Source: Vicinamibacterales bacterium (GTDB taxonomy: Bacteria; Acidobacteriota; Vicinamibacteria; Vicinamibacterales; UBA8438). From it: a stretch of 64,000 bases of DNA. The DNA lies in contig CBDAVM010000001.1 of assembly GCA_965200895.1 (NCBI GenBank), positions 2,484,335-2,548,334 of the forward strand, read 5' to 3'. How positions within the stretch are numbered: the first letter of the stretch is position 1; each line of letters starts with the position of its first letter. Of this stretch, positions 9,060 through 54,359 are shown in pieces. The position numbers and the translations under genes are program-made. The notes under the pieces are model-generated. The model had not been told where the DNA came from. It saw only the letters and a list, made by a program, of their open reading frames with translations, and did no database searches.

Positions 9060-9493
9060 TTCTTTGCTTGCGCCGCGGGCGAGCGCAGGGCCGGCGTGGC
9101 CACCGAGTACGGTACCGATCCCCTTGGCGACATGGAAACGGCCCCCTTCCGGGGATGAGTCAGCCGGATGAAGGGATGCGAACACCTCCTCCATGAAGAG
9201 GGACAAGTGTCCAGGAACCGGGGCAATTCCACCGGAGCGCGGCGCTTGCTCCGGAGTCCGGGCGCAGGCTACGATCCTGCGTCCCGTCACGGTCTCGGAA
9301 CGTGGCGTGCGATGGAGTGTCCCGGGTCGGAGGCGGCACCGGCCGAACACGATACCGAAGGCCAGTTGCGCAAGGGCACTCGAGCGCGGTCGTACTGCCC
9401 AGTGCGTCGCGGTGCAAGGATCGCCGGCCGCGCCGGCCGAAGCACGGCGATGCAGGCACCACAACTGGAGGTCGCTTGCAAACAGGCTTGAGA

Positions 9494-10306: not shown

Positions 10307-10370
10307 GCCCGCGATGCGTGCCCGTCGTGCGCTTTGCGGCGGGTCGGGGAGGTCGATCTACCATTTCAAG

Positions 10371-15589: not shown

Positions 15590-17268
15590 TGCCGGAACCT
15601 CGGATGAGGGCGGCCGGGTCGGCCCCGACGCGGTGGTTGGTCGTGATGCTGGGGTTCGCGGTGCTGCTCGCCGGATGCGCCGCACCGGACGAGCCTGCAT
15701 CGGAGGCGCAGGCGTCGGCGGAGACGGCGGCCGGAACGCCGGCCTCGGCGGGCTCGATGGTGTCGTGCGGCGATGCGCTGCCGGCTCTCGACCGGGTCGG
15801 CGAGTCGGTGCAGGCCCGGATCCGCGAACAGCACGCGGCCCTGCCGCCGCGCGACGAGCGGGCGGGCCTCCCGGCGGAGCTGGCGGCCGATGTCGTCGGC
15901 GTGATGGGGATGACGTTCATGGCGGCCTGGTTCACGGACGAGGCCGAGCCGTGCCTGCGCGAGGCGGCGGGACTGGCGCCGGACGACGTGCGCTGGCCCT
16001 ACTATCTCGCGCAGTTGTACCGCGACCGCGGCGCGCTGGACGAGTCGGCCGCGTTCTTCGAGCAGGTCCTCCGCATCCAGCCGGAGGACCCGACGACGCT
16101 GTTCTGGCTCGGCGACATCCGCCTGGAGCAGGGCCGGTCCGACGAGGCCGAGCCGCTGTTCGCCCGGGCGCTGGCGCTGTTCCCGTCGTCGCTCTCGGCG
16201 CGCTACGGCCTGGCGCGGACGGCGCTGCTCGAAGAGGACTACCGCCGGGCCGCGGACCTGCTGGAGGAGATCCTCGCGCGCGCCCCGGACATCGGCGCGG
16301 TGCACTACCCGCTGGGGATGGCCTATCGCGGGCTGGGAGACGACGCGAAGGCCGAGGAGCACCTGCGGCGGCGCGAGAACGCCGAGATCCGCCCTGCGGA
16401 CCCGTTGATGGCGGCGCTGGACTCGCTTCTGACGACCGCCGGCACCTTCGAGAATAGCGGTCTGGAGGCGCTCGACCGACAGGAGTGGCCGGCCGCGATC
16501 GAGCAGTTCCGGCAGGGGCTCGAACTGGATCCCGACGATCCGGGGCTGCGGCACCGGCTGGGCACGGCGCTCTTCATGGTCGGCGATCTCGACGGCGCGA
16601 TGGCCGAGTTCCAGCGGGTCGTGCGGACCACCCCCGACTACTTTCCCTCGCACTACAGCATCGGCGTGCTGCTGCAGGAAACGCGGCGGCATGCCGAAGC
16701 CGTCGAACGGTTCCGGACCGCACTGCGCCACCGGCCGGGGGACGACGCCGTGCACCTGCGGTTGGCGATCAGCCTGCGGCACGCGGGCGATCCGCAGTCG
16801 TCCCTGTCGTACTACGAGCGGGTGCTGCGTTCCGCTCCCGACGCGCTCGAGGCCCGGTTCGGATACGCGATGGCCCTCGTGCAGCTCGGCCGCTACCGGG
16901 AGGCGCGCGACCGGTTGGTCACCGCGATGGAGGCGTTTCCGAACGAGACTTCGTTCCCGCACGCGCTGGCCCGGCTGCTCGCGGCCGCACCGGATGGCGC
17001 GATCCGCAACGGCCGGCGGGCGATGACGCTGGTCGAGCAGGTCATGGACGCGGAGCCGGAGCCGACGCTCGATCTGGGCGAGACGATGGCGATGACCCTC
17101 GCCGAGGTGGGCCGCTTCGGCGAGGCCGCCGAGGTGCAGCGTGCACTGATCGGCGCCGCCGAGCTGGCCGGGTTGCCGGACGTGGTTCGGCGCCTGACGG
17201 TGAATCTCCGGCGTTACGAGCGGGGGGAACCGTGCCGCACGCCCTGGCCCGCCGAGGCCATGCCATGA
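15589..17268 (+). CDS. TPR-repeat lipoprotein (TPR-b), coupled to CRTAC1-b
   Basis: The ATG at 15589 shares one nt with the upstream TGA (TGATG). Signal MPEPRMRAAGSAPTRWLVVMLGFAVLLAGC. Paralog of 2..1711. Confidence 0.8.
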   Translation: MPEPRMRAAGSAPTRWLVVMLGFAVLLAGCAAPDEPASEAQASAETAAGTPASAGSMVSCGDALPALDRVGESVQARIREQHAALPPRDERAGLPAELAADVVGVMGMTFMAAWFTDEAEPCLREAAGLAPDDVRWPYYLAQLYRDRGALDESAAFFEQVLRIQPEDPTTLFWLGDIRLEQGRSDEAEPLFARALALFPSSLSARYGLARTALLEEDYRRAADLLEEILARAPDIGAVHYPLGMAYRGLGDDAKAEEHLRRRENAEIRPADPLMAALDSLLTTAGTFENSGLEALDRQEWPAAIEQFRQGLELDPDDPGLRHRLGTALFMVGDLDGAMAEFQRVVRTTPDYFPSHYSIGVLLQETRRHAEAVERFRTALRHRPGDDAVHLRLAISLRHAGDPQSSLSYYERVLRSAPDALEARFGYAMALVQLGRYREARDRLVTAMEAFPNETSFPHALARLLAAAPDGAIRNGRRAMTLVEQVMDAEPEPTLDLGETMAMTLAEVGRFGEAAEVQRALIGAAELAGLPDVVRRLTVNLRRYERGEPCRTPWPAEAMP

Positions 17269-17600: not shown

Positions 17601-18608
17601 ATGGTGATGTCCACGCGATCGCCCCGTCCGTCGCGTCTGCGCCCGTTCGTCACCGCCGCTGCCGGTCTCGTGCTCTGGATGGCGGTGGACGCGGTCCTGC
17701 CGGCGCAGTCCGCGCAACAGCTTTATCTGACCGTGCTCGACGACGACGGAAATCCTGTCGTTGACCTTCGGCCGCACGAGATATCCGTGGCGGAGAACGG
17801 GGTGCGGTCCGAGGTGCTGTACCTGGCCCGCCCGCGCGGTCCGGCGGACGTCTCGATACTGGTCGACACCAGCGAAGCGGTCGTGCCCTCCACGACGCAC
17901 GTGCGGCGGGCGTTGACGGAGTTCGTGGAGGCCCTCGACGGCTACGCGCGCATGTCGCTGATGACGTTCGGCGACCTGCCGGTGCGCGTGGTGCCGCCGA
18001 CGACGCGGCTCGGCGTGATGCGGGATGCGGTCGACCGGGTGTTCCCCGCCGTCGGCGCGATTCCCCGCTTCCAGGACGCGTTGATCCAGACGGTGCGCGA
18101 CATCCAGAACCGCCAGCCGAACCGGCCCACGCTGGTCGTCATCACCTCGGACCAGGTGCCGGGCGCGTTCGCCACCGAGTCGCCCAACACGTCGGCCCGC
18201 CCGGTGGACCAGGTCATCGGCGTACTGCAGGCCATCGGTGCGCCGGTGCACATCGTGGCCCTGCGGAGCAGCGCCTCGTTCGACATCGTGGGGCGCGGCG
18301 TCTTCGACCGGGCGTCGGCCTTCAGCGGCACCGCCGACAACAACATGCGCAACTCGATCATGGCCCGCGAGACCCGCGACTGGCTGATGGCGCTCGAGAC
18401 CGCGTCGAATCGGACCGGCGGCCGGCTCGTCAATACCTATGCGAGCGCCGGCCTCGCCACGCCGTTGATCGAGATCGCCAACGAGATTGCCGGCCAGTAC
18501 GTGCTGACGTATTCGCGCGCCGCGCTTCCGCTCGACACCGAAACGCTCCAGATCGAGATCGGGATCGCGCGCGAGGACGTCACGGTGCGCGTGACGCCCG
18601 TCATCTGA
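17601..18608 (+). CDS. vWA-domain protein (acidobacterial VWFA-related type)
   Basis: 335 aa with an N-terminal signal/anchor. LYLTVLDDDGNPV...ISVAENG N-domain, then a MIDAS-like ILVDTSEA and MSLMTFGD. The overall layout matches the VWFA-related acidobacterial family as I remember it. Confidence 0.7.
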   Translation: MVMSTRSPRPSRLRPFVTAAAGLVLWMAVDAVLPAQSAQQLYLTVLDDDGNPVVDLRPHEISVAENGVRSEVLYLARPRGPADVSILVDTSEAVVPSTTHVRRALTEFVEALDGYARMSLMTFGDLPVRVVPPTTRLGVMRDAVDRVFPAVGAIPRFQDALIQTVRDIQNRQPNRPTLVVITSDQVPGAFATESPNTSARPVDQVIGVLQAIGAPVHIVALRSSASFDIVGRGVFDRASAFSGTADNNMRNSIMARETRDWLMALETASNRTGGRLVNTYASAGLATPLIEIANEIAGQYVLTYSRAALPLDTETLQIEIGIAREDVTVRVTPVI

Positions 18609-18692: not shown

Positions 18693-20456
18693 GTGAAGCA
18701 GACGCTGTTGGCGTGGTCGGCGGCCGCGGCGCTGGCCGCCTGTGGTCCGTCCGGTTCCGGGTCGTCCGAGCCGGCCGGGACGGGCGCGCCGCCGGTCGCC
18801 CCGCTCGATCCAGCCCGCGAACTGTTCGCCGACCGGGCGGTCGAGGCCGGCCTCGACTTCGTCCACTTCAACGGCATGACGGGCGGGTTCTACCAGCCGG
18901 AGATGATGGGGCCGGGCGCAGGCCTCTTCGACTACGACAACGACGGGGACCTCGACGTCTATCTGGTGCAGGGCGAGCTGCTCGGCGACGGGACGCCGCT
19001 GCTGCCGCCGCCCGAGGGACAGCCGCCGGGCGACAGGCTGTACCGGAACGATCTGGCGGTGGGGCCGGACGGGACGCGGTCGCTCCGCTTCACCGACGTC
19101 ACCGACGAGAGCGGCCTGCCGGCGGGCGGCTACGGCATGGGGGTGGCGGCGGGCGACTACGACAACGACGGCTGGGTCGATCTGTACCTGACGCGCTTCG
19201 GGCGGAATCGGATGCTGCGCAACCGCGGTGACGGGACGTTCGCCGACGTATCCGCCGAGACCGGCGCCGACGAGCCGTCGTGGGGCGTGCCGGCGACCTT
19301 TCTCGACTACGACCGCGACGGCTGGCTGGACCTGTTCGTCGGCAACTACCTGAACTATACGCTGGACACGCATACGCAGTGCTACAACCGGTCGGGGCCG
19401 CCCGACTACTGTCCGCCGGAGGTGAGCCCGCCGGCCCCGAGCCGGCTGTACCGCAACCGGGGCGACGGCACGTTCGCCGACGTCACGGCCGCGGCGGGGC
19501 TGGGCCGGGAGTTCGGGCCTGCGCTCGGAGCCGCGTCGGCGGATTTCGACAACGACGGCTGGATCGACCTGTTCGTCGCCAACGACCAGCAGGAGAACCA
19601 GCTCTGGATGAACCAGGGCGGGGGCGGGTTCCTCAACCTGGCCCTGCTGCAGGGCGTGGCGCTGGGCGCGGCGGGGGACGCGAAGGCGGACATGGGGGTC
19701 GACGCGGGCGACTTCGACAACGACGGCGACGAGGACCTGTTCATCACGGAGCTGACCGGACAGGGGAGCACGCTCTACGTCAACGACGGCGCCGGGCTGT
19801 TCGAGGACCTGAGCGCCGTCTACGGCATCCGCGCTGCGAGTCTGCCCTATACCGGGTTCGGAGCGGGCTGGCTCGACATCGACAACGACGGCTGGCTCGA
19901 CATCGTGGCCGTCAACGGGGCGGTGACGCAGCGTCTCGAATCGCTGGGCCCGGGGAACCCCTTCCCGCTGGACCAGCGCAACCAGGTGTTCCGCAACCTC
20001 GCCGGAACGCGTTTCGAGGACGTGACCGACCGGGCCGGCGCCCCGTTCGCGCGCTCCGAGGTGAGCCGGGGGGCGGCGTTCGGCGACATCGACAACGACG
20101 GCGACACCGATGTCCTGGTGGCGAACGCCGCCGGCCGGGTGGAACTGCTGATCAACCAGGTGGGTCAGGGCCGCGACTGGATCGGACTGCGCCTTGCCGG
20201 GGGCGATGTCCCGCGTACGGTGGTCGGCGCGCGCGTGACGGTCATCGGCTCGGACGGGGTCACGCGCCGGCGGCGTGCGCGGGCCGACGGCAGCTACGCG
20301 TCGGCGCATGACCCGCGGGTGCTGATCGGGCTCGGCGACGAGTCGGCGGATGCGCTGGCCGTGCAGGTCACGTGGCCGGACGGACGGGCCGAGGCGTGGC
20401 CCGACGTGCCGGTCGGGCGCTACAGCACGCTGGCGGCAGGCGGGGGGCGGCAGTGA
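18693..20456 (+). CDS. CRTAC1-family lipoprotein (FG-GAP + ASPIC/UnbV), copy c (closest to copy a)
   Basis: GTG start. Lipoprotein signal MKQTLLAWSAAAALAAC. Long near-identical stretches with copy a (NGMTGxFYQPEMMGPGxGLxDYDNDGDLD; YCPPEVSPPxPxRLYRNRGDGTF). Confidence 0.85.
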   Translation: MKQTLLAWSAAAALAACGPSGSGSSEPAGTGAPPVAPLDPARELFADRAVEAGLDFVHFNGMTGGFYQPEMMGPGAGLFDYDNDGDLDVYLVQGELLGDGTPLLPPPEGQPPGDRLYRNDLAVGPDGTRSLRFTDVTDESGLPAGGYGMGVAAGDYDNDGWVDLYLTRFGRNRMLRNRGDGTFADVSAETGADEPSWGVPATFLDYDRDGWLDLFVGNYLNYTLDTHTQCYNRSGPPDYCPPEVSPPAPSRLYRNRGDGTFADVTAAAGLGREFGPALGAASADFDNDGWIDLFVANDQQENQLWMNQGGGGFLNLALLQGVALGAAGDAKADMGVDAGDFDNDGDEDLFITELTGQGSTLYVNDGAGLFEDLSAVYGIRAASLPYTGFGAGWLDIDNDGWLDIVAVNGAVTQRLESLGPGNPFPLDQRNQVFRNLAGTRFEDVTDRAGAPFARSEVSRGAAFGDIDNDGDTDVLVANAAGRVELLINQVGQGRDWIGLRLAGGDVPRTVVGARVTVIGSDGVTRRRRARADGSYASAHDPRVLIGLGDESADALAVQVTWPDGRAEAWPDVPVGRYSTLAAGGGRQ

Positions 20457-20533
20457 TCAGGATGGCGGCCGGCCGGATGCGGCTTCCCCGGCCCGCGGTC
20501 GTACGCCGGAGAGCACGTCGTTGGGTGAGCGGG

Positions 20534-21916
20534 ATGGCGGCCGGTCGGACACGGCGGGGCGCGGCGCTGGTGTGGCTCCTGGGGATGTTGAGTCTTGCGT
20601 CGTGCGGCGACGCCGGGTCGTCGGATGCCGGCGGACCCGCTGCGCCCGGCCCCCTTGAATGGTCGGGGCCGCGGCCGGTCGATCAGCCTGACCTCTCCCG
20701 GCTGGCGCCGCCGGTGCAGGAGCAGGTGCGCGAGCGGTACGCCGCCATCGCGCGCGCGGGCGACGGTCCGGATGCGTCGCCGACCGTGCTGGGGGATGCC
20801 TACGGCGAGCTCGGCCTGATTCTGATGGCCGCCGGCTACCGGGACCGGGCCGAGGTCGCTCTCCTGAATGCGTACGGGCTGGCGCCCCGCGTGATGCGCT
20901 GGCCCTACTATCTCGCGCACCTCCATCGCCAGGAGGGGGACCGGGCGCGGGCGGCCGGGTTCCTTGTCCGGGCGCTGGCGCTGGAGCCGTCGCACCTGGC
21001 CGCCCTGGTCTGGCTGGGTCGCATGGAGCTCGACCGGGGGCGCACCGTCGAGGCGCAGGCGGCGTTCGAGCGGGCGCTGGGCGTCGATCCGGCCTCGGCG
21101 GCGGCCCTGGCCGGCGCCGGGCGGGCCGCGCTCGCGGCGCGCGATGCGCAGCGGGCCGTGGGGTACCTGGAGCGCGCCCTGGCGCTGGAACCGTCGGCCG
21201 GGAGCCTGCACTACAACCTGGCCATGGCGCACCGGGCGCTCGGCAATCTCGACACCGCGCAGTCCCACCTCCGGCGTCGCGGCGCCGGCGTGCCGGCGCC
21301 CCCCGACCCGCTGATGCGGACCTACAACGGTCTGCTCCGCAGCGCTCTCGCCTACGAGATCCGCGGCATGCGGTCCATGGACGCGCGCCGGTTCGACGAG
21401 GCAGCCACGATCTTCAGGGCCGGGTTGACCGGGACCCCCGACGATCCGTCGCTGCGGCACCGGCTGGGCACCGCGCTGATGATGGCCGGCGACGCCGAGG
21501 GCGCCATCCGGGAGTTCGAGGCCACGTTGCGCATCGCGCCGGACTTCGAGAAGGCGCAGTTCGGGATCGGCGTGATTTTGGGCATGAGCGGGCGGCACGT
21601 CGAGGCGGCCGAGCGTTATGCGGCGGCGGTCGAGCTGCGGCCGAACTACCTGGAGGCGCGGCTCGGGCTGGGGGAGGCGCTGCGGCTCACCGGCCGGCTG
21701 CAGGAGGCTGCGGCGCAATTTGCCGAGGCGGTCCGCATCGACCCGGCGTTCGCCGAGGCCTGGGTGGTGCGTGCGATCATCCTGCTGCAACTGGGGCTGT
21801 CCGGCGAGGCGGATGCCTGGCTGCGCGAGGCGCTGCTGGTGCACCCGGGCCATCCCGATCTGACGGCGCTGCTGGCGGAGGTCGAGGGCCGCGGATCCCG
21901 ACGCGGGGCGCGGTAG
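20534..21916 (+). CDS. TPR-repeat lipoprotein (TPR-c), C-terminally shorter than its paralogs
   Basis: In-frame starts at 20453 (GTG overlapping the upstream TGA), 20462 and 20534. 20534 gives the canonical signal MAAGRTRRGAALVWLLGMLSLASC. Colinear with TPR-a up to LLVHPGHPDL, then it ends. Confidence 0.75.
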   Translation: MAAGRTRRGAALVWLLGMLSLASCGDAGSSDAGGPAAPGPLEWSGPRPVDQPDLSRLAPPVQEQVRERYAAIARAGDGPDASPTVLGDAYGELGLILMAAGYRDRAEVALLNAYGLAPRVMRWPYYLAHLHRQEGDRARAAGFLVRALALEPSHLAALVWLGRMELDRGRTVEAQAAFERALGVDPASAAALAGAGRAALAARDAQRAVGYLERALALEPSAGSLHYNLAMAHRALGNLDTAQSHLRRRGAGVPAPPDPLMRTYNGLLRSALAYEIRGMRSMDARRFDEAATIFRAGLTGTPDDPSLRHRLGTALMMAGDAEGAIREFEATLRIAPDFEKAQFGIGVILGMSGRHVEAAERYAAAVELRPNYLEARLGLGEALRLTGRLQEAAAQFAEAVRIDPAFAEAWVVRAIILLQLGLSGEADAWLREALLVHPGHPDLTALLAEVEGRGSRRGAR

Positions 21917-21965
21917 GGCTCGCAGCCGGCGGACAGGCGCGCCGACGGGCCGAGCCGCGCGGCTC

Positions 21966-24194
21966 TCAGGGCGGGGCGCGGTACGGCTCGTAGCGGCGGT
22001 ACAGGTTCAGCCGCTGTTCGATGCGCCGCACGAGGTCGCCGAGTCCCGGCGTTGCGCGCGCGCGGGCCGCGGCGCGGCGTGCCGTGGCCACCGCATCCGG
22101 GAAGCGTCCGACGGCGGCGTAGGCGGCGGCGAGCGTGTCGAGCGCGTCCGGGTGCGCATCGCCGCCGATACGCACCGCCTCCTGGGCGAGGCGCAGCGCC
22201 GCGGCGCCGTCTCGCAGCGCGGCGTCCGCCGACGTGGCCCGGATCCAGGCCAGTCCCAGGCGCGGGGCGGCCAGGTTCGGGCCGTGAGAGAGGGCCCGCA
22301 GGTAGAGCGCCGCCGCCTCGGCCGTCCCGCCCGCGCCGACCAGCGCCCGCGCCAGGTTGTTCAGGATCTCGGGATCGTCCGGCGCGGCCTCCAGGGCCAG
22401 CCGGTAGTGCCGGATCGCCGCGGCGGTCTCGCCGCGCGTCAGCAGGACGTTGGCCAGGTTGTAGTGCGCTCCGGAATGGCCGGGATCGGACCGCACCGCC
22501 AGGCGGTAGTGCACGATGGCCTCGTCGAGGGCGCCGGTCGCGGCAAGCAGGCCGCCGACGTTGTTGTGCGCTTCCGGGTAGTCCGGACGCAGCGCGATCG
22601 CGCGCCGGTAGGCGGCGATGGCCGCCGCCGCATCCCCTTCGGCCAGGGCCACGCCGCCCAGGTTGTAGTACGCGTCCGGAAAGTCCGGGGCGAGGGAGAC
22701 GGCCGCTTCGAGATGCTCGCGGGCGAGTGCCACCTGACCGACGTCGAGGTAGCGCACCGCGAGCGCCGCGTGATTCACGTGGTCGGTCGGATCGGCGCGC
22801 AGCAGGGACTGATAGCCGAGTATCTCGTCGCGCGCCTGCTTGACGGCCAGGCTGCGCGCCAGCGTGTCCGGGTCGCCGACCGGCAGTACCTGCAGCATCA
22901 GCTCCGCCATCTCGTCGGTCGCGGCCGGGCCGAAGCCGACCGTGGCCGGCGGGTCGTGGGGGTTGCGCGGGTTGCCGCGGGAGTTGTCGAAGGTGAAGCG
23001 CACCCGGAGCTGCGTCCCCGCCGGCAGGTGGACCGGCTCCTCATAGCGGTACTCGTCCTGCCAGTTGAAGTCCCAGTCGTCGATGCGCAACAGCGGCTCC
23101 TCGCGCCCGTTCGGCAGCGTGGCCGTCGCCTGGATCCGTTTCCCCAGGTAGTGCATGTGGGGCGCGATACCCAGCACGTCGACCGCGATCGGCAACCGAT
23201 AGCCGTCCTGGATGACGTGGGCCGGATCGCCGGCGGGGATGCGAATGGCCTGCGACGTGAGCAGCACCGAGACCGGCGTCAGCGTCGCCGGACGGTCCGC
23301 GAAATGGAGTCCGACCGCCGGTTGCACGACCACCGCTTCGCGACCGGGCAGCAGGTGGAGCTGCAGCACGAGATCGGTGCCGGGATCGAGCGGCCAGGCG
23401 ATCTCGTCCGGGAGGGTCACCGGCGTCCGGCCGGGCGCCCAGCCCAGGAAGTGACCGGCGGGAAAGCGGGCGTGGTCGAGCATCAGACCGTCGTAACCCG
23501 GATCGGGATCTTCCGCATCGAGTTCCCGCGCTGCACGAGTCTCGTCCAGCAGGATGCGGGCATGGTGGATCACGCGCCCGCCGCCGGCGCCCGGCCGCAG
23601 CTCGACGGCGCGCACCCAGCGCCGGGAATCCAGATCCACGGGCAGGACGAAGTTGCGATAGACATCGGTGTGGCCCGACGACAGCCGGAACGGCTCCGGC
23701 GCGGGCACGACGAGGTCCGGCGGTCCGAGCTGCCAGCCGTTCCCGGTCCCGGGCGGCTCCGGGAGGTCGGCCCGCTCGCCTTCGGCCGCGCCGGTCGCCG
23801 CCCACCGGGACAGCAGGGCGATCTGTTCTTCCGACAGCCGTCGCTCGTTGCGGAAACGGCCATGACCGGGGACCGGTTTCCAGGGCGGCATCCGCCGCTC
23901 GGCGGTGGCCGCGGCGATCTGCACCGCCCGCGCCCCGGCGTCCGCGTAGGTGGTCAGACTGAAGGGACCGATGCCGCCGGGACGGTGGCAGCCGACACAG
24001 TGGGCGTGGAGGATCGGCGCAACATCACGTGCGAACGTCACGGAGCCGCTGTCGGGTTCGCCCTGTGCGAAGCCGATCTCGGGAGCGCCGCCGGCTCCCG
24101 ACATGCCGATGACGACGATTGCCGCCGCCGCGACACGCGGGCGGAGCCATTCGTATCGCGGCCCGGTACGCATGCGCTTCATCGTGCTGGACAT
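21966..24194 (-). CDS. Secreted CxxCH-motif + PHM/DBH-like type-2 copper monooxygenase domain + C-terminal TPR protein (paralog 1)
   Basis: 742 aa. HCVGCH heme-c motif. Cu-ligand-like VIHHARIL, LVLQLHLL, APHMHYLGK and TDEMAELM. DWDFNWQ. About 250 aa of TPR. Tail RLNLYRRYEPYRAPP. Confidence 0.75.
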   Translation of the reverse strand: MSSTMKRMRTGPRYEWLRPRVAAAAIVVIGMSGAGGAPEIGFAQGEPDSGSVTFARDVAPILHAHCVGCHRPGGIGPFSLTTYADAGARAVQIAAATAERRMPPWKPVPGHGRFRNERRLSEEQIALLSRWAATGAAEGERADLPEPPGTGNGWQLGPPDLVVPAPEPFRLSSGHTDVYRNFVLPVDLDSRRWVRAVELRPGAGGGRVIHHARILLDETRAARELDAEDPDPGYDGLMLDHARFPAGHFLGWAPGRTPVTLPDEIAWPLDPGTDLVLQLHLLPGREAVVVQPAVGLHFADRPATLTPVSVLLTSQAIRIPAGDPAHVIQDGYRLPIAVDVLGIAPHMHYLGKRIQATATLPNGREEPLLRIDDWDFNWQDEYRYEEPVHLPAGTQLRVRFTFDNSRGNPRNPHDPPATVGFGPAATDEMAELMLQVLPVGDPDTLARSLAVKQARDEILGYQSLLRADPTDHVNHAALAVRYLDVGQVALAREHLEAAVSLAPDFPDAYYNLGGVALAEGDAAAAIAAYRRAIALRPDYPEAHNNVGGLLAATGALDEAIVHYRLAVRSDPGHSGAHYNLANVLLTRGETAAAIRHYRLALEAAPDDPEILNNLARALVGAGGTAEAAALYLRALSHGPNLAAPRLGLAWIRATSADAALRDGAAALRLAQEAVRIGGDAHPDALDTLAAAYAAVGRFPDAVATARRAAARARATPGLGDLVRRIEQRLNLYRRYEPYRAPP

Positions 24195-24228
24195 CCCGTT
24201 CGCCGGGCCTGCTGCCCTTGATGCTCCC

Positions 24229-26403
24229 TTATCGGAGCGGCCGTCGTTGCCGGTACAGCGTCAGCCTGCGCTGCAGTTCGGCCGTCAGATCCGGGCTGCC
24301 GATCGGGCGAGCCAGCGCAATCGCCTGCCGTTGCGCGGTCAGCGCCCCGTCGAAGCGCCCCGCTGCAGCGTACGCCGCGGCGAGCGTGGCCACGACGTTG
24401 AGGTCCTGCCGGCCGGTGAGCACGGCCGCCCGTTCGGCCAGCGCCACGGCTTCGCCCGGCGTGCGAAGCCGTTCGTCACCGGTCGTCGACAGGAGCCAGG
24501 CGAGAGATGTCAGCGACTCGACCCCGTCCGGTTCCAGCGCCAGCGCCCGGCGATAGTGCCGGATGGCGTCACCGTCCCGGCCGACCGCGGCCAGGGCGCT
24601 GGCGAGATTGTTGTGCGCCGCCGCGTTGCCCGCGTCCAGCGCCACGGCGCGTTCGAAGTACGCCGTGGCCTCGGCGCCGCGGCCCATCGCCTTCAGCACG
24701 GCCCCGAGGTTGTTGTGCGCGGCGGCGTGCGCGGGCCGCAACGCGATGGCCCGCCGGAAGTGCCGCACCGCCTCGTCGAGCGCGCCTCGCGCGGCCAGCA
24801 GCGTGGCGAGGTTGTAGTGCGCCGTGACCGACGCCGGATCCAGCTCGATCGACCGCCGGTAGTGGCGCACGGCGACGGCCGTGCGGGCGGCTGTCATGTA
24901 GAGCGACGCCACGTCCCGATGCAGGACCGGGTTGTCGGGATCGGAGGCCAGCATCGACTCGTACCCGACGATGTCCTCGTTGAGGACCTTCGGCATGAAG
25001 GCCTGGACGAGCGTCCGCCGATCCGCCTCGGAGCCGGGCAGAAGCTGCAGCCAGAGATCCCCCATCTCGTCGTTCGAGAACTGCCCGAACCGGACGCGGC
25101 GCGGCGGATGGTCCGGGTTGCGCGGGTTGGCGGCCGAGTTGTCGTAGACGTACTCCATGGCGACCGTCGTCCCGGCCGGCAGAAACGGTCGCGTCTCGTA
25201 GCGGTAGACGTCCTGCCAGTTGAAGTCCCAGTCGGGAATGCGGATCAGGGGCTCGGTCCGGCCGTCCGGGAACGTGGCGAAGCCGTTGATCTCGGTGGCG
25301 CGGAAGTGGGCGTGCGGCTGGATGCCGATCAGCTCGGCCGCGACCGGCAGCGTGAACCGGTCGCGGATGACGTAGCGCGGCTCGCCCGGCGGAATGTCGA
25401 TGCTCTGGCGGCCGAGGCGCAGCATCATCGGGGTGCGCACCGGCGGATCGTCGGTGAAGTGGAGCCCGACGCTGGCCTGGATCGATTCCGGACGGCCGGT
25501 CGACTGCATGTGGAGCTGAATGACGAAGTCGCTGTCCGGCTCCAGGCGCCAGGCCATCCCCGGATCGGCCAGGGGGGGAAGCTGGCCCGGGGTCCACCCC
25601 AGAAAGTGGCCGTCGGGATAGTGCGCCTGCGGGCTGATGGGGCCTTCGTATCCGGGCTCCGGATCCTGCTCGTCGAGCTGTCGGGACGAGCGCGTCCGGT
25701 CGATTCGCAGGTTCGCGTGGTGCGCCACCCGCGGGTTGCCGGGCCGGAACTCGATGCCGGCGACGAAGGCCGTGCGCTCGACCGGGATCGGAAGGACGAA
25801 GTTGCGGAACGTATCGGGGCCGTCGGCAGGTACCGTGTACGGTTCCGGCATCGTCACCACGACATCGGGCGTGCCGAGACGCCAGCCCCGCGGCCAGTCC
25901 GGATGCGGCGGCACACGGCTCAGGTCGCCGGCCGGCGCGCCGGCCTCGGCCCAGCGCCGGAAGAGCGCCACGCTACTGTCCGAGAGCCGCCGGGAGCCGA
26001 CGAACGGTCCGCCGAATCCCGGCTCCGGCTTCCACGGCGGCATGAAGCGGCTGGCCGTCACCTCGGCGATCTGGCGCGCGCGCCGCCGGACGTCGTCGTA
26101 TGTGAGCAGCGGAAAGGGGCCGACCTCCCCGGGGCGGTGGCATGGCGCGCAGTGCTCGATCACCAGCGGCGCGATGTCGTCGGAGAAGGTCGGCGTGGCC
26201 GGTTCGCGCGGCGCCGGGACGGAAGCCTCCGCCGACATCGGCGCCTCCGGTGCGACCGTCGCACCGCGCGCGTTGTCGGGGGCCGCGACGCCGTACGCGA
26301 GGAGCGCTGCAGCGAAGGAAAGACGAGGAGGACGGCGCCATCGATTGTCGCGTCGCATGGTTCCGGAGCGCACAACAGGGCTCATCGGCATTATATTGGC
26401 CAT
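24229..26403 (-). CDS. Secreted CxxCH-motif + PHM/DBH-like copper monooxygenase domain + TPR protein (paralog 2)
   Basis: The start is uncertain (ATG at 26403 or 26358). HCAPCH, VAHHANLR, FVIQLHMQ, QPHAHFRAT, NDEMGDLW, DWDFNWQ, TPR tail ...RLTLYRQRRPLR. The long N-terminal extension of the 875-aa ORF overlaps the upstream gene and is discarded. Confidence 0.75.
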   Translation of the reverse strand: MANIMPMSPVVRSGTMRRDNRWRRPPRLSFAAALLAYGVAAPDNARGATVAPEAPMSAEASVPAPREPATPTFSDDIAPLVIEHCAPCHRPGEVGPFPLLTYDDVRRRARQIAEVTASRFMPPWKPEPGFGGPFVGSRRLSDSSVALFRRWAEAGAPAGDLSRVPPHPDWPRGWRLGTPDVVVTMPEPYTVPADGPDTFRNFVLPIPVERTAFVAGIEFRPGNPRVAHHANLRIDRTRSSRQLDEQDPEPGYEGPISPQAHYPDGHFLGWTPGQLPPLADPGMAWRLEPDSDFVIQLHMQSTGRPESIQASVGLHFTDDPPVRTPMMLRLGRQSIDIPPGEPRYVIRDRFTLPVAAELIGIQPHAHFRATEINGFATFPDGRTEPLIRIPDWDFNWQDVYRYETRPFLPAGTTVAMEYVYDNSAANPRNPDHPPRRVRFGQFSNDEMGDLWLQLLPGSEADRRTLVQAFMPKVLNEDIVGYESMLASDPDNPVLHRDVASLYMTAARTAVAVRHYRRSIELDPASVTAHYNLATLLAARGALDEAVRHFRRAIALRPAHAAAHNNLGAVLKAMGRGAEATAYFERAVALDAGNAAAHNNLASALAAVGRDGDAIRHYRRALALEPDGVESLTSLAWLLSTTGDERLRTPGEAVALAERAAVLTGRQDLNVVATLAAAYAAAGRFDGALTAQRQAIALARPIGSPDLTAELQRRLTLYRQRRPLR

Positions 26404-26485
26404 CGTGCCGCGAGACTTCACCCGCCGTGCCGCGAGACTCCACCCGCGCACCGGCGAGGAGCGGTGCCGGCGGCCTCGGAAAGTG

Positions 26486-28069
26486 TCACTCGGCGACGGG
26501 TTCACCGCGCAGCAGTGGCAGCCGCGCTCGCACCTCGCGCCGTGACAGCCCGATGACGTCGGCTGCGTCCACAAGCGTCTCCACGTCGGCGGGATAGAGT
26601 CGGCGCCGGGCCGGGTCGGCCAGACCGGCGACGTTGCGCGGGGCAATCGTGCGGCGAGCGAGGTCGAGCAGCGGCCCGGAACGGGGCTCCTCCACGAGCC
26701 GGGCCGCCGCCGCGAGGATCCCCTGCAGCACCGGGTCGGTGGCGCCGAGGAATCCGGACCAGGCCCACTGGCCGTCGGTTCCGGGCGGCGCAGGACACAG
26801 GCGTTGGCGTGTCTCGCTGTAGCTGGCCGCGGCGAAGTACGCCTGGACGTAGGCATCGAACGCGTCGAAACGGCAGCGGCAGCGGTAGGCAGGCTCGATG
26901 AGGCGACGCAGGTGGTTCGCCTCCGAGCGGAGCAGCGCGGAGTACCGCTCGAGTCCGGTCGTCAGCCGGACCCGCGTGGCGGTCGGGGAAGCCGTCCGGT
27001 CCTCGAGCAGCAGGCCGAGGCGTTCGACGCCGAGCAGGCTCCAGGCGATGCCGGTGGAGAAGAGCGGGCTCCAGAACTGCAGGACGTGCGGCAGCAGGGC
27101 CCAGCCGTCGCCCGCGGCGCGCGACAACCGGCGCTGCAGCCGCGGAATCACCGCCACCGGGCGCACCGGGACCGCGGTCTCGTATTGCGCGGCGAGCGAG
27201 GGATAACGCCGCGCGAACGCCTGGAACGCGGCGGCGGGCATCCGGTTCGTGATCGCACGAACGGCCGCGGCCCCTTCGACGACGAAGCCGGCGCTGACCA
27301 CGCCGTGATCGAAGGTCAGTTCGTACATCCAGCCTTCGTCGAGGAGATGGTGGACGGCCGCCCTTTCGTCGGGGTAGGGACCGGCGGAGAACGTCCCGCC
27401 GGCGCCGGCCGCGGCCCGCAGCGGTCGTACGCCGCGAAAGTGGCCGTGGACGAGCCCGGTGTGGAGCGAGCCGGGCGGCAGCGCCGCCTGCAGCTTCAGA
27501 TGCCGAGCCAGGAAGCCGTCGGGTCCCGAGGCGTCGATGACGACATCGGCCGGCAGCCGCACCGATCCATCCGGGCGCGCGCCGCGCAGGCGGAAGGCGC
27601 CGCCGCGGCGCTCCAGGGTGTCCAGGGCGGTCCGCTCGAGGCAGCGCACGCCTTCGGCGTCGGCCTGTCGGAACAGGAAGGCGTCGACGTCCTCCCGCAG
27701 CCAGTGCGCATCGGCGACCGCGTCGTCGGGGCTGGCCGCGACGAGCAGACGGTTGCTGTTCGTCGCGTCGTTGCGGTACCGCTGTCCCTGCCGGTGCAGA
27801 TAGAACGTGAATCCGCGCTTGAGCCCGCGGCGGACCTCGGGAAGACGGGCGGTCCAGCGGCCGTAGGCGGCGAGCTGGCGCAGGTCGTCGAGGCCGTAGC
27901 GGGCGGCCAGCCGCTCCAGGGCGATCGCCGCCAGTGGCGTCGACGATTCCCCCAGGGCGAACCGCGGATGTGCGCCCCGCTCGACCAGGGTGACGTCGTG
28001 GCCGATGGCGCGGGCGACCCGGGCCAGGATCGACCCCGCGAATCCGGAACCTACGATGACGACGCGCAT
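26486..28069 (-). CDS. FAD-dependent oxidoreductase with a flavin-dependent halogenase/monooxygenase-like fold
   Basis: The start MRVVIVGSGFAGSILA carries GxGxxG. FALGESSTP. GWMYELTF sits where halogenases carry WxWxIP, so the motif is degenerate. 528 codons. The rest of the 787-aa ORF is an Arg/Pro-rich artefact. Confidence 0.7.
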   Translation of the reverse strand: MRVVIVGSGFAGSILARVARAIGHDVTLVERGAHPRFALGESSTPLAAIALERLAARYGLDDLRQLAAYGRWTARLPEVRRGLKRGFTFYLHRQGQRYRNDATNSNRLLVAASPDDAVADAHWLREDVDAFLFRQADAEGVRCLERTALDTLERRGGAFRLRGARPDGSVRLPADVVIDASGPDGFLARHLKLQAALPPGSLHTGLVHGHFRGVRPLRAAAGAGGTFSAGPYPDERAAVHHLLDEGWMYELTFDHGVVSAGFVVEGAAAVRAITNRMPAAAFQAFARRYPSLAAQYETAVPVRPVAVIPRLQRRLSRAAGDGWALLPHVLQFWSPLFSTGIAWSLLGVERLGLLLEDRTASPTATRVRLTTGLERYSALLRSEANHLRRLIEPAYRCRCRFDAFDAYVQAYFAAASYSETRQRLCPAPPGTDGQWAWSGFLGATDPVLQGILAAAARLVEEPRSGPLLDLARRTIAPRNVAGLADPARRRLYPADVETLVDAADVIGLSRREVRARLPLLRGEPVAE

Positions 28070-29022
28070 CCCGGACAGCGGACGGGAGGACCCGGATCCC
28101 CCGTGAGGTTGAAGCGGCGCAGCCGGGCGATCCGCGAGGCGCGGCAACGCCGGCAGGGCAGGACGCGGTCGATGTCCCACAGGTCCACCGTCGCCACGGC
28201 GGCGGAGATGCCGGCGCAACCCTCCATCGCTTCCTCGATCAGCTCGCGTGTGGGCGGGGTCCAGAGTCCCCGGGCCCGGAGCGCGTCCAGGGCGCCGTTG
28301 CCGTCGCGGGTCGGGATGAGGGTGACGTGTGCGGCCCCCTGATCGACCGCGTGGCGCGCCGCGTCGAGGGCCGCTTCGACTGCCCCGACCGACGGCACGA
28401 ACGGCGGCGGCAGCAGCACGAACGCGCGCATCCCGATGTTGCTCCGGGCGAGTCGCGCGGCGGCCCGATCGAAGTCCTCGATCGTCATGCCCTTGTCGAG
28501 TCGCACCAGAGCCGCCGGGTCCGCGGTCTCCAGACCCATGGCGACATCGAGCCGCCCGGGGATGCGGTCCGCGAATTCGAGGCAGCGCCGCCCGACCAGA
28601 CGCGGGTGGCACTCGACGGTGACGCGGTCGAACGGACGGAGGAGGGCGGCGATGGCTGTGTCGTCTTCCGGCGGGACGGCGCGCGCATCGAAGAAGTTGC
28701 TCGCGTTGTAGAGCTTGATCCCGCACCCGGCCGGCACCGCACCGGTATCCCGGAGCACGGTCTCCAACTGCCGGGGAACCGCACCGCGTGGCGTCGGGCC
28801 GTCGAGCGTCCGGCGCCACAGGTCGCAGAACACGCAGGTGAAGGGGCATTCCGCACCGGCGAGCAGCACCGTCAGCACCGGCGCGATCGAGCCGTCGAGC
28901 CGCCGCTCCTCCTCCTCGAAGTGGGCGATCGGGCGCATCGGATGCGGTTGGATCTTCGGGCCGCGCCGTGCTCGCGCCGCGCCGCCGGCGCGCCCTCCGC
29001 GCCGGGATGCCGGTTCAGGCAC
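28051..29022 (-). CDS. Radical SAM protein (small, no obvious SPASM domain)
   Basis: CxxxCxxC in AGAECPFTCVFCDLW. TIM-barrel-like length. C-terminal CRRC...CPGC pair. The start is ambiguous (GTG at 29022, or ATG at 28938 giving MRPIAHFEEEE). Overlaps the downstream gene by 19 nt. Confidence 0.75.
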   Translation of the reverse strand: MPEPASRRGGRAGGAARARRGPKIQPHPMRPIAHFEEEERRLDGSIAPVLTVLLAGAECPFTCVFCDLWRRTLDGPTPRGAVPRQLETVLRDTGAVPAGCGIKLYNASNFFDARAVPPEDDTAIAALLRPFDRVTVECHPRLVGRRCLEFADRIPGRLDVAMGLETADPAALVRLDKGMTIEDFDRAAARLARSNIGMRAFVLLPPPFVPSVGAVEAALDAARHAVDQGAAHVTLIPTRDGNGALDALRARGLWTPPTRELIEEAMEGCAGISAAVATVDLWDIDRVLPCRRCRASRIARLRRFNLTGDPGPPVRCPGCASSS

Positions 29023-30361
29023 GCGGCGCGTACTGGGCGAGGAAGTAGCCGCGATAGCGATCCGGGTCGCCGAACACCGCGTCGAACGCAGCGTCCGCCA
29101 GCGCCCCGTGCTGGAAGCGGCGTTTCGGAAAGACCGGCAACTCGCGGCCCAGCACCTGCCGCACGCCGCGGCCGAGCACCTCGCCCTTGAGGGCGTACAG
29201 GCGTTCGTGCGAGCCGCGGCTGAGCTCGTCGAACGGGATGCCCTCGGCCGCCGCGATCACGTCCGGTGCGGTGAAGGGGCTGACCAGGTGGAAGCCGTAC
29301 CGCCGGGCCGGCGCATGGCCGCGCACGCAGCCCCGGCTCAGGCCCCCGCTGTAGGTCAGCGAGTGCTTGATGGCGTCCACGCCCCAGCCCTCCTGGTACA
29401 GCATGCGGTTCGAGACGACGCTGCGGATGGTGAGTTCCGTGTTCTCCTCGATCGGGTAGTCCTTCAGGTTCTCGTCGCCGCCGTCGCCGTCGAAGAGCCA
29501 GCGCCAGCGCGGGTAGCGGGCCCGGACCCCGGCCAGCAGGGCCAGACCGACCGTGGCGCACTCGACATCGAGCGGCTTGTAGTCCTCGATGACCGCCACC
29601 GCCCCCCGCGGATCGAGCGCCCCGGCCGGTTCGTCGATCTCCTCCAGCAGGAACTCGAGGCCGGTGTCCCGCACGAAGCGGCGCGCCTGCCTGGCATCGT
29701 CGCCACCCCCGGCGACCGACAGCGTGAACGCCTTCAGCCGCGCCGGCGATTCCTGCCGCTGCAACAGCGCGTCATGCAGGCAGAGCAGCAGCGCGCCGCT
29801 GTCGAGGCCGCCCGAGAAGAGCACGCCGAGCGGCTCGTCCGGCGGCGCGGCGTCGAGCCAGGCATGGACCTCGGCCAGCGCCGCCGTCACGTAACGTCGC
29901 CCGATGAGGTCGAGATCGGTCGGCATGTCGGCCATCGCGGGGGCGAAGAACCGCGTATGGCGCGGCTTCGGATCCGGACAGCCGACCAGCGCGATCTCCG
30001 TCACGTGGTGCGCGGGCGCCATGCGCGTGTAGGTCGGGTGGAACTGGCTCGCGTAGCCCTCCGCCTCCAGGAAGCGATGGATGGCGTCGATGCGGTCGGC
30101 GATCACCAGGAGCGGTCCGGCCGCTTCCTTGGCCAGGAAGTAGCGCAGCGGCCGGCTGAGGCTGCGGACCAGGCGGACGCGTTCGCCCTTGCGGGCGACG
30201 AGCGCGAACGAGCCGCGGATGTCCAGTACCGCAGCCGGGTCGTCGGCCAGGAGGCGCCGGCGCGCCTCGTCGACCGTCATGTTGAGGATGTGCTGGTCCT
30301 CGTCCGGAATGAGGTTCGCAATCCGATGCACCGGATACTCGGCGATTGTGCTGGCGTCCAT
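29015..30361 (-). CDS. Asparagine-synthetase-B-like ATP-dependent amidoligase (PP-loop; no N-terminal catalytic Cys)
   Basis: PP-loop LGVLFSGGLDSGALLL. A vestigial Ntn-like N-domain (RGSFALVA) lacks Cys2. ATG at 30361 (MDASTIAEYP) with SD AGGGGA. The ORF extends to 30388. Confidence 0.75.
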   Translation of the reverse strand: MDASTIAEYPVHRIANLIPDEDQHILNMTVDEARRRLLADDPAAVLDIRGSFALVARKGERVRLVRSLSRPLRYFLAKEAAGPLLVIADRIDAIHRFLEAEGYASQFHPTYTRMAPAHHVTEIALVGCPDPKPRHTRFFAPAMADMPTDLDLIGRRYVTAALAEVHAWLDAAPPDEPLGVLFSGGLDSGALLLCLHDALLQRQESPARLKAFTLSVAGGGDDARQARRFVRDTGLEFLLEEIDEPAGALDPRGAVAVIEDYKPLDVECATVGLALLAGVRARYPRWRWLFDGDGGDENLKDYPIEENTELTIRSVVSNRMLYQEGWGVDAIKHSLTYSGGLSRGCVRGHAPARRYGFHLVSPFTAPDVIAAAEGIPFDELSRGSHERLYALKGEVLGRGVRQVLGRELPVFPKRRFQHGALADAAFDAVFGDPDRYRGYFLAQYAPRA

Positions 30362-30629
30362 GACAGGTTCCCCTGGATCGGATCCCAATCAGCCCGTGGC
30401 GGAAGTCCCCGCGGCATTCGAGCGGCCTCCGCCAGCCCGCGGAGACCGGTATTCACCCAACCGTTCCGAGCGGCGTGTATCGAGGGCAACCGCCAGCCCG
30501 GGGGACTCTTCGATATACTAACCGCTCTGCGGCGAGTTCGCCGCGTTGCCTGCACCGTCGGTTCAGGCACCGAGACCGGGCGAGCCGCCCCGCGTATCCG
30601 GAACTTCGCATAAGGGAAAGGCAAGCCGC

Positions 30630-31568
30630 ATGTCCACTCGACTCCTTCGCCTCGCCAGCCTGCCGGCGCTCGGCCTCCTGCTGCTCACACCGTCCGCGTC
30701 GGTCGCACAGCTCGACCAGACCGCGACGTGGGCCTCGCATCTCTCCAACGAGTACCGCGTCGTGCCGAATGTGACGTATCACGTCGCGAACGGATTCGAG
30801 AACCGCGTCGATCTCTATCTGCCGGGCAACGCGTCCGGACCCTCGCCGGTGCTGATGTACATCCACGGCGGCGGCTGGGTCGGCGGCAGCAAGGAGGGCA
30901 ACGTCCTGCGGTTGCTGCCCTGGCTGGAGAAGGGCTGGGCCGTGGTCAACGTGCAGTACCGGCTGGGCCGCATCTCGCGGGCTCCGGCCGCGGTGGAGGA
31001 CTGCCTCTGCGCCCTGCACTGGGTGAAGAGCAACGCGGAGCAGTACGGTTTCGATACGTCGCGCATCGTCGTCACCGGCAACTCGGCGGGCGGGCACCTG
31101 GCGCTGACCACGGGGATGGTGCCGGATTCGGCTGGCCTCGACCTGGAGTGCCAGCCGCGGGGCGACCTGGGCGTCGCCGCGATCATCAACTGGTACGGCA
31201 TCACCGACGTGGGTGACCTCCTGCAGGGCGTGAACGAGAAGTCGTACGCGGTGCGCTGGATGGGTAGCCTGCCGGACCGGCTTGATGTCGCCCGCCGCGT
31301 GTCGCCGCTCAGCTACGTCCGGGCCGGTCTGCCGCCGGTGCTCAGCATCCATGGGGACGCTGACACGGTCGTCCCGCATCAGCACGCGGTACGGCTGCAC
31401 GAAGAGTTGTCGGCGGCCGGCGTCGACAATCAGTTGCATACGGTGCCGGGCGGAGGCCACGGCCGCTTCACCCGTGACGAGACGATCGTGATCTTCGAGG
31501 CCATCCAGGCCTTCCTCGGGGAGCACGGGCTCGGAGACATGCCCGCGCCGACCCAGGGTCAGCAGTGA
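30630..31568 (+). CDS. Alpha/beta hydrolase (esterase/lipase, HGGG type), secreted
   Basis: Signal MSTRLLRLASLPALGLLLLTPSASVAQ. MYIHGGGWVGG oxyanion motif. GNSAGGH nucleophile elbow. C-terminal HGDADTVVP and GGGHG. Confidence 0.8.
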   Translation: MSTRLLRLASLPALGLLLLTPSASVAQLDQTATWASHLSNEYRVVPNVTYHVANGFENRVDLYLPGNASGPSPVLMYIHGGGWVGGSKEGNVLRLLPWLEKGWAVVNVQYRLGRISRAPAAVEDCLCALHWVKSNAEQYGFDTSRIVVTGNSAGGHLALTTGMVPDSAGLDLECQPRGDLGVAAIINWYGITDVGDLLQGVNEKSYAVRWMGSLPDRLDVARRVSPLSYVRAGLPPVLSIHGDADTVVPHQHAVRLHEELSAAGVDNQLHTVPGGGHGRFTRDETIVIFEAIQAFLGEHGLGDMPAPTQGQQ

Positions 31569-34909: not shown

Positions 34910-34998
34910 GCGGTCCTTCCCCAATCACGCCTCGTGTCGCCGGTGGATGCCGGCCCGCGGGGCGGGCGCCGTCGACTGCCTTCCCGAGCCGCCATGGA

Positions 34999-36345: not shown

Positions 36346-36663
36346 GGCAACTCCTCGCAGCACGTATTCTATCCGGGATCCTGAGCGTTCCGAAGTACAC
36401 GAAGGGACTGTCGAACCCGCGGCGTCGGACGCCGATGGCGTCCCACAGCGCCGTCCGGTCCCAGGTCGGATTGAAGGCGCTCACCAGGTTCCCGGAGACG
36501 GGAGCGACGGGCGGGTCGCGGTCGTGCGACGGCGCGCGAAAGCCATGCGGGCGTTCCCAGGCGCTCGCGGCGCAGAACGCCGCGGAGTGCGTTCCGCGCC
36601 GCAAGCTTCCGGGGCGATGGGAACTGCGGCCAACGCGGAGCCTTGACGACGGGTTGGCCGGCG

Positions 36664-54355: not shown

Positions 54356-54359
54356 GATC

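Follow-up and report, generated by a model that had tools for sequence, protein, structure and literature searches.

Do bacteria possess their own version of the uncoupled two-copper monooxygenases, of which peptidylglycine alpha-hydroxylating monooxygenase (PHM) and DBH are the textbook representatives and whose known members are enzymes of the eukaryotic secretory pathway? Two adjacent genes of a soil-dwelling Vicinamibacterales bacterium (Acidobacteriota; assembly GCA_965200895.1) raise this question. The genes, hereafter winA and winB, lie on the minus strand of a 64,000-nucleotide stretch of contig CBDAVM010000001.1 (positions 2,484,335 to 2,548,334; hereafter, the window), to which all coordinates below refer. 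An earlier reading of the window from its letters alone (hereafter, the sequence-only reading) described them as tandem fusions of a heme-c motif, a PHM/DBH-type core and tetratricopeptide repeats (TPRs), and this three-part architecture holds in our profile searches, in an AlphaFold2 model of winA compared with Foldseek, and in Pfam TPR matches. We conclude, with slightly more confidence than doubt, that the pair encodes periplasmic or envelope two-copper monooxygenases of the PHM/DBH superfamily that use their own heme c to supply reductant.

The gene pair and its PHM/DBH-like core

Starting at an ATG, winA (21966-24194, minus strand) encodes a 742-residue precursor composed of a signal peptide, a cytochrome c domain, a PHM-like two-copper core and a TPR arm. 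Its paralog winB (24229-26403, minus strand) encodes 724 residues with the same architecture from an ATG at 26403. The winB frame remains open upstream to 26856 and this stretch overlaps the end of the preceding gene, so the true start is either 26403 or the Met at 26358. Over their entire length, the two proteins share 42% identity (E = 2e-177). Only 34 nt separate winB from winA downstream, and the pair is therefore probably co-transcribed; a scan of 21700-26900 for sigma-70 promoters and intrinsic terminators found none.

Because the window has a GC content of about 71%, and GC contents of 71-76% yield many long spurious open reading frames (ORFs) on both strands, the motifs might have come together by chance in a GC-rich reading frame, or the two ORFs might not be genes. 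We assign this explanation virtually no probability, since it is refuted by more than 3,000 homologs, by the 11,938 cluster representatives described below, by a confidently predicted fold and by conserved synteny, as well as by the frame-specific GC content at third codon positions, which is 0.87-0.88 in both ORFs (0.88 in winA) and supports the coding frame. Orthologs of winA with 78-80% identity occur at eight Vicinamibacterales loci, where the winB orthologs (82-88% identity) always lie directly upstream of the winA ortholog. The retention of the B-then-A tandem as orthologous pairs in eight genomes is a sign of selection.

Every motif quoted in the sequence-only reading was recovered in both ORFs, and the order is the same in each: CxxCH, MPPW, HH, xQLH, PHxH, DWDFNWQ and DEM. 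In winA these are C66-x-x-C69-H70, M102-PPW, H210-H211, LQLH280, PH346-M-H348, DWDFNWQ at 373-379 and DEM429; in winB the corresponding residues are C85/C88/H89, M121, H228/H229, H298, H364/H366, DWDFNWQ at 391-397 and M447. The PHM/DBH-like core of winA comprises residues 141-441 (22872-23774, minus strand). Its putative copper ligands are H210, H211 and H280 at the site called CuH in PHM and H346, H348 and M429 at the site called CuM, and those of winB are H228, H229 and H298 (CuH) and H364, H366 and M447 (CuM).

A single-sequence search of the PDB with the N-terminal 443 residues of winA returned nothing meaningful, and a family profile was required to reveal the relationship. All ten PDB matches of profile A1, built from 18 family cores, were PHM chains (10/10, E ~0.01), and the alignment placed the family's vHHa on PHM VH107H108M, LQLH on LQVH172 and PHaHyLGk on H242TH244HLGK, which brings five histidines into register. 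For the methionine we relied on a PHM segment (residues 242-322) that was checked against the PDB (100% identity) before alignment; the PHM motifs HTHHLGK and SDEMCNLY, as cited in the sequence-only reading, are correct in this verified sequence. Local alignments with hidden Markov models (HMMs) and global pairwise alignments both set the family's DEM on PHM SSDEM314, so that M429 corresponds to M314, and set HxH on H242/H244 and the invariant Q379-x-x-Y on PHM Q272-x-x-Y. The claim that DWDFNWQ is shared with PHM did not survive this comparison, as PHM has QNPQLPQAFY at that place and only the Gln (Q272) and the following Tyr align. The claimed match in order and context of the six ligands stands: by alignment, all six PHM copper ligands have predicted counterparts in winA and winB.

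Successive ligand intervals in winA and winB are 69, 66 and 81 residues, versus 64, 70 and 70 in PHM, and the extra residues in the last interval are a conserved insert, DNSxxNPRNPxxPP. The loop (DNSxxNPxNPxxPP; winA residues 403-416, ~22947-22988, and its winB equivalent) is strictly conserved and sits immediately ahead of the Met-bearing strand; it may form a lid or part of a substrate pocket peculiar to the bacterial clade.

The AlphaFold2 model of full-length winA has a mean predicted local distance difference test score (pLDDT) of 90.1 and a predicted template modelling score of 0.83. When it was searched with Foldseek, TPR superhelices ranked at the top, followed by about 25 PHM entries including 3MLL, 1PHM and 1OPM. 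The match to 3MLL (E = 5e-11) has a template modelling (TM) score of 0.65 normalised to PHM and a root-mean-square deviation of 4.0 Å over 288 columns of a 304-residue target. PHM entries overall gave TM scores of 0.60-0.65 over ~290 columns, with both sub-domains and nearly the whole catalytic core covered, and human DBH (4ZEL) was matched at E = 1e-9. Ligand register together with global superposition suggests that the putative sites could adopt a copper-binding geometry; in PHM the two coppers are ~11 Å apart.

The family is large. Among representatives of clusters formed at 50% identity, 11,938 match the core profile at E ≤ 1e-3 and 2,782 at E ≤ 1e-30. We assessed conservation in the best 147 of these representatives plus winA. 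The six putative copper ligands are invariant in this set (148/148), as are W374, Q379 and N404; CxxCH is present in 134 of the 134 sequences that cover the site and the Met of MPPW in 137 of 138. H248, in the motif GHFLGW, was considered as a seventh ligand because it is conserved in close homologs and was rejected because it is found in only 76 of the 148 sequences of the wider set. Among the 120 closest homologs, 112 have intact ligands, as do all ORFs covering the sites in the loci studied apart from the two copies of the gene P0087 (loci L002 and L003); neither winA nor winB is degenerate.

The closest genomic loci belong to metagenome-assembled genomes of Vicinamibacterales (80-85% identity). 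Relatives are encoded at no fewer than 431 loci of GTDB species representatives (at least 431), distributed over other Acidobacteriota, Gemmatimonadota, Verrucomicrobiota, Planctomycetota and a few Gammaproteobacteria. A homolog is also present in Acidobacteria bacterium Mor1 (L063). More than one copy occurs in several genomes, and at 15 of 80 loci two or three copies lie within 20 kb. In public databases these proteins go by the names "tetratricopeptide repeat protein" (NCBI, e.g., MCY4662915.1) or "TadD/PilF / mono/diheme cytochrome c family" (JGI); InterPro superfamily signatures may already tag such proteins as PHM/PNGase F-like.

Cytochrome domain, export signals and TPR arm

Residues 51-140 of winA (23775-24044, minus strand), for which four helices are predicted, resemble a class-I c-type cytochrome with C66-x-x-C69-H70 as the heme-binding motif and M102, in MPPW, as the distal ligand. 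Cytochrome-c models, which the sequence-only reading had proposed as a check, recognised this region across the family but only below threshold in winA itself: across 35 diverse family N-domains, Pfam Cytochrome_CBB3 matched 34 (best E = 1.1e-6), Haem_bd 23, Cytochrom_C 12 and PccH 10, and the winA match to Cytochrome_CBB3 (E = 1e-4) scored 22.8 bits against a cut-off of 27. A profile of the domain gave weak PDB matches (E 0.003-1) that were almost exclusively c-type cytochromes, including the hydrazine synthase alpha heme domain (E = 0.003), PccH (0.007), cytochrome c6 (0.09) and CcoP, and an 80-residue alignment with cytochrome c6 set CaaCH on CxxCH and the axial-Met motif RMPGF on MPPW. The domain shares with monoheme cytochromes such as the C-terminal heme domain of hydrazine synthase alpha (5C2V), PccH (4RLR), c6 (2CE0) and CcoP a CxxCH-bearing helix at the N-terminus, an MP motif that supplies the distal Met, and a W...G helix at the C-terminus. 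It differs from them in that family scores mostly fall below Pfam cut-offs and in that the domain is fused to an enzyme rather than free-standing; at nearly all of 85 loci, a single ORF encodes both this domain and the core. A model of the isolated domain reached a pLDDT of 88. Sequence gives good support to a predicted monoheme c-type cytochrome domain with His/Met ligation, which the fold comparison does not confirm.

Covalent attachment of heme c takes place outside the cytoplasm, and both proteins have an N-terminus that looks like that of an exported protein, with basic residues ahead of a hydrophobic segment of ~15 residues. A Sec signal peptide, read by eye, is predicted at residues 1-43 of winA (24066-24194, minus strand), with a basic n-region, the hydrophobic segment VAAAAIVVIGMSGAGG and a cleavage site between GFA and Q; residues 1-48 are disordered in the AlphaFold2 model, with pLDDT below 50. 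The predicted signal peptide of winB, likewise read by eye, covers residues 16-45 (26269-26358, minus strand) and consists of MRRDNRWRRPPR and LSFAAALLAYGVAA. These features suggest export of both proteins to the periplasm or envelope.

The remainder of winA (residues 442-742; 21969-22871, minus strand) consists of a linker helix, some seven TPR pairs and a helical cap at the C-terminus, as delineated by Pfam and an all-helical model, and Pfam TPR_11, TPR_2 and TPR_1 match both proteins at E-values of 1e-21 to 1e-25. As a rule, family members have a TPR arm, whose length varies; P0121 and P0164 are exceptions. P0121 (1064 residues) has two cytochrome-plus-core modules per chain and EF-hand motifs instead of TPRs, and P0164 carries an extra Redoxin domain. 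The winA arm, up to its C-terminus and including the cap, is 33-35% identical (E 1e-22 to 1e-28) to the last ~260 residues of TPR proteins that are encoded elsewhere in the window as partners of UnbV_ASPIC (hereafter, ASPIC) genes (2-1711, 11066-13756 and 14524-17268). It is 36% identical to winB, which is little closer. The likeness to the ASPIC-partner proteins could reflect a shared docking partner, or it could reflect a common TPR subfamily.

Proposed mechanism and alternative explanations

By modelled fold and active-site signature, the family belongs to the PHM/DBH superfamily: the two-domain core and the CuH and CuM ligand patterns are present, and scores remain under the Pfam gathering thresholds of PF01082 and PF03712. 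Resemblance to PHM lies in the two-domain beta-sandwich core, in the HH...H (CuH) and HxH...M (CuM) patterns, which occur in the same order and register with similar spacing, and in the retained equivalent of Q272. The family differs from PHM in being only 17-19% identical, bacterial and predicted to be periplasmic, in having an N-terminal heme-c domain, a C-terminal TPR arm and 8-11 inserted residues (DNSxxNPRNPxxPP) before the Met strand, and in having no conserved R240, N316 or Y318 and no PAL partner; the fused cytochrome presumably replaces ascorbate. DBH (4ZEL) and the MOXD/tyramine beta-monooxygenases share the core fold with the family, and in both cases an accessory domain precedes the core. 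DBH, however, has DOMON and dimerisation domains where the family has a c-type cytochrome and TPRs, and nothing in the family points to a phenylethylamine substrate. By general analogy, cytochrome-c-fused NirK and the pairing of the cellobiose dehydrogenase cytochrome domain with LPMO also have an extracytoplasmic heme domain that feeds single electrons to mononuclear copper, but their copper-domain folds are unrelated to the core described here.

PHM and DBM are tabulated as eukaryote-only copper proteins in a 2020 metalloproteome review (PMC7435645), and our literature search, which was incomplete in coverage, found no paper on a bacterial PHM/DBH-type enzyme. In agreement with the sequence-only reading, we found no characterised counterpart of the fusion of cytochrome c, PHM-like core and TPRs.

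We propose a mechanism in which Sec would translocate each polypeptide and the Ccm machinery would attach a single heme c at CxxCH, ligated axially by His70 and Met102 in winA. The two-domain beta-sandwich core would hold two separate coppers, CuH (H210, H211, H280) and CuM (H346, H348, M429). We know of no ascorbate in the bacterial periplasm, which points to the fused cytochrome c as the source of single electrons; these would pass from the periplasmic cytochrome/quinol pool through the fused cytochrome to CuH and on to CuM. O2 would be activated at CuM and a substrate C-H bond hydroxylated, and the TPR arm might dock the enzyme to a protein partner or hold a protein or peptide substrate. 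In favour of this proposal are the fold, the individual matches of 17 of the 18 family cores to Cu2_monoox_C, the register and invariance of the ligands, the cytochrome signature, the recurrence of redoxins, the export signals and the retention of the gene pair.

Several results weigh against it. The anticipated hit to copper-monooxygenase HMMs was obtained marginally: Cu2_monoox_C (PF03712) recognised winA with 16.7-18.5 bits against a cut-off of 23 (E = 0.005 at 16.7 bits) and 17 of the 18 family cores individually at E ≤ 1 (best 1.7e-5), in all cases sub-threshold, while winB had no Cu2_monoox_C match in Pfam and PF01082 matched none of the family sequences scanned. Profile A3, made from the C-terminal half of the core alone, did not find PHM in the PDB. 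In structures of PHM with substrate, R240, Y318 and N316 form a clamp for the carboxylate and backbone of peptidyl-glycine; R240, N316 and Y318 align to A344, E431 and M433 in winA and to Q362, D449 and W451 in winB. Because the clamp residues are not conserved, a substrate would not be bound in the manner of PHM and none is inferable by homology; the predicted substrate of winA and winB differs from the glycine-extended peptide of PHM. Given these differences at the substrate site and the sub-threshold Pfam scores, we file the family as a distant bacterial clade and not as PHM or DBH. Foldseek found no PDB neighbour at E < 4 for the isolated apo-domain model of the cytochrome; since this domain is small and was modelled without heme, we count the result neither for nor against the assignment. 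The association with ASPIC and TonB-type genes described below may partly reflect how common such genes are in these genomes. Finally, in eight of the 120 closest homologs between one and four copper ligands are missing and CxxCH and the distal Met are retained, which indicates that degenerate paralogs exist and that a copper-independent scaffold role is possible in some; these paralogs may be non-catalytic or may function differently. The eight are P0073, P0074, P0075, P0081, P0085, P0087, P0090 and P0101; the pattern in P0087 is RR..A..Y.H.M, and its loci L002 and L003 are without ASPIC or TonB-type neighbours.

Three alternatives keep the domain assignments and change the function. The proteins could use the same cofactors without C-H monooxygenation, as cytochrome-c-fed copper reductases or oxidases of a small oxidant (O2 to H2O2 or H2O, superoxide, nitrite) for which the TPR arm serves docking only. 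A heme c donor combined with two coppers, one of them a His3 site, formally resembles cytochrome-fused NirK; the titles of entries 3mlk, 3mib, 3mll and 3mlj indicate that copper in PHM crystals binds nitrite, azide and CO; the substrate-binding residues of PHM are absent; and the peroxiredoxin-type Redoxin/AhpC-TSA proteins that are adjacent or fused in other lineages would fit the handling of reactive oxygen. We nevertheless regard this alternative as unlikely, since the His2Met CuM site, DEM and Q379, the equivalent of PHM Q272, are strictly conserved hallmarks of an O2-activating monooxygenase site, and neighbour annotation reveals no genes for denitrification or reactive oxygen species nearby. 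Still less probable, in our judgement, is that electrons flow the other way, with the copper core oxidising a substrate and heme c passing the electrons to the respiratory chain, as in quinohemoprotein dehydrogenases. Fused c-type cytochromes are electron exits in quinohemoproteins that contain pyrroloquinoline quinone (PQQ), and the window encodes a PQQ dehydrogenase and planctomycete-type cytochromes, a sign of a periplasmic cytochrome network; against this, no member of the PHM/DBH superfamily is known to act in reverse, and the His2Met CuM site is tuned for O2 activation.

We likewise see little likelihood that binding or scaffolding in envelope complexes with FG-GAP/ASPIC, TPR and TonB-type proteins is the main role of the PHM-like core, its metal sites being structural or vestigial. 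The persistence of the eight close homologs with lost ligands would be explained in this way, as would the homology of the TPR arm to the C-terminal modules of neighbouring ASPIC-partner TPR proteins and the recurrence of ASPIC, TPR and TonB-type genes as neighbours. The ligands, CxxCH and its Met are, however, essentially invariant in the set of 148 diverged sequences and intact in both window genes, which indicates strong selection on the metal sites.

Extending the proposed two-copper monooxygenase from this pair to the family is a more tentative step. With a probability that we put a little short of even, there is a very large, unrecognised bacterial branch of the PHM/DBH superfamily (~12,000 clusters at 50% identity) in which ascorbate has been replaced by a fused heme c fed from the periplasmic pool, and in which a TPR arm, together with FG-GAP/ASPIC, TonB-type and redoxin partners, lets the enzyme act on proteins of the envelope, on peptides or on organic matter taken up from outside. 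If true, an enzyme class held to be eukaryotic would commonly belong to the envelope biochemistry of Acidobacteriota, Gemmatimonadota, Verrucomicrobiota and Planctomycetota from soil and water, and thousands of proteins labelled "tetratricopeptide repeat protein" in abundant, poorly understood soil phyla would acquire a likely catalytic role. In the known enzymes, the route of electrons from the donor to CuH and from there to CuM is still debated. A bacterial version would show the chemistry without ascorbate, and its built-in heme-c donor would make it a self-contained system that is possibly easier to express and in which electron entry could be triggered and followed optically.

Gene neighbourhood

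A plus-strand block of envelope genes (1744-21916) converges on winA. It contains two TonB-receptor-like genes with CarboxypepD_reg and OMP_b-brl_4 domains (1792-5175 and 5590-8976), a 393-residue ORF to which no function is assigned (9193-10374), three FG-GAP/UnbV_ASPIC plus TPR gene pairs (10260-13756, 13838-17268 and 18693-21916) and an acidobact_VWFA gene (17601-18608) that passes the TIGR03436 model, all on the plus strand. The third FG-GAP beta-propeller/UnbV_ASPIC protein (18693-20456; FG-GAP_3 E = 6e-50, UnbV_ASPIC E = 2e-13) is followed by its partner, a protein with Pfam TPR matches (20372-21916) whose gene is convergent with winA.

The arrangement recurs. The B-then-A tandem together with the convergent TPR-ASPIC-VWA block is kept in eight related genomes, and a convergent TPR-ASPIC(-VWA) arrangement lies beside homologs at loci L001, L004-L011, L020, L023, L026, L027 and L057. 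At L004, a single gene with 56% identity is convergent with a TPR-ASPIC-TPR-ASPIC-TonB-type series. When neighbours were counted across 80 GTDB loci, with ASPIC counted within 10 kb, 21 loci had ASPIC, 25 had TonB-type genes and 37 had either. A functional link between the pair and the ASPIC, TPR and TonB-type genes is suggestive only.

Unbiased clustering of all flanking ORFs identified one further partner, an exported Redoxin/AhpC-TSA protein of ~190 residues with DCPI(S/A)NRY and GC motifs, which is encoded directly beside the gene in 18 of the 80 loci and in at least four phyla (L030, L031, L036, L038, L050-L052, L054, L056, L058, L062-L064, L071, L074, L075, L083 and L084). In P0164 the Redoxin domain is fused at the N-terminus of the protein itself, and the 64-kb window contains no redoxin-type gene. 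The adjacent or fused redoxin supports a redox function of the family; its adjacency and fusion do not discriminate among roles in electron supply, peroxide handling and metal loading. We considered the redoxin as a Sco/SenC copper chaperone, on account of its Sco-like motif T-D-C-P-I-S/A-N, and found no support for this, as Pfam matched only Redoxin, AhpC-TSA and thioredoxin-like families and not SCO1-SenC. Since the recurrent neighbours (FG-GAP/ASPIC plus TPR, TonB-type and redoxins) are of unassigned function, the substrate of the enzyme could open up a whole envelope system.

Upstream of winB lie three minus-strand genes, overlapping or coupled (26486-30388), for an Asn-synthase-like protein (29015-30388), a radical SAM protein weakly similar to the archaeosine RaSEA model (28051-29022) and, just upstream of winB, an FAD/Trp-halogenase-like protein (start ~28069, end 26486). 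They possibly form a small-molecule or modification operon. We rejected them as conserved partners of the pair, and regard them as unrelated to it, because they are adjacent in the five closest genomes only and absent at the tandem-pair loci L001, L009 and L010.

Elsewhere in the window, a minus-strand planctomycete-type gene pair, DUF1552/HXXSHH (49793-51166) and DUF1592/1588/1585/1595 (51237-52655), accompanied by DUF1587 plus a cytochrome c domain (52678-53763; whole group 49793-53763), is predicted from sequence to be another exported cytochrome system. A full-length beta-propeller of the PQQ-dependent glucose/ethanol/alcohol dehydrogenase type (Pfam PQQ, E = 5e-175) is encoded at 46642-48675 (minus strand). 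A protein with a 3-keto-disaccharide hydrolase domain beside a GFO/IDH/MocA oxidoreductase (34154-36363, minus strand) looks like a sugar-oxidation pair, and hydrolases are represented by a PDZ-containing hydrolase-like protein (31565-33229) and a BD-FAE/alpha-beta hydrolase esterase (30546-31568). Ankyrin repeats are uncommon in bacteria; at 53733-56382 (minus strand), a GmrSD_N (DUF262-type) protein (53733-54881) adjoins a 476-residue ankyrin-repeat protein (54952-56382).

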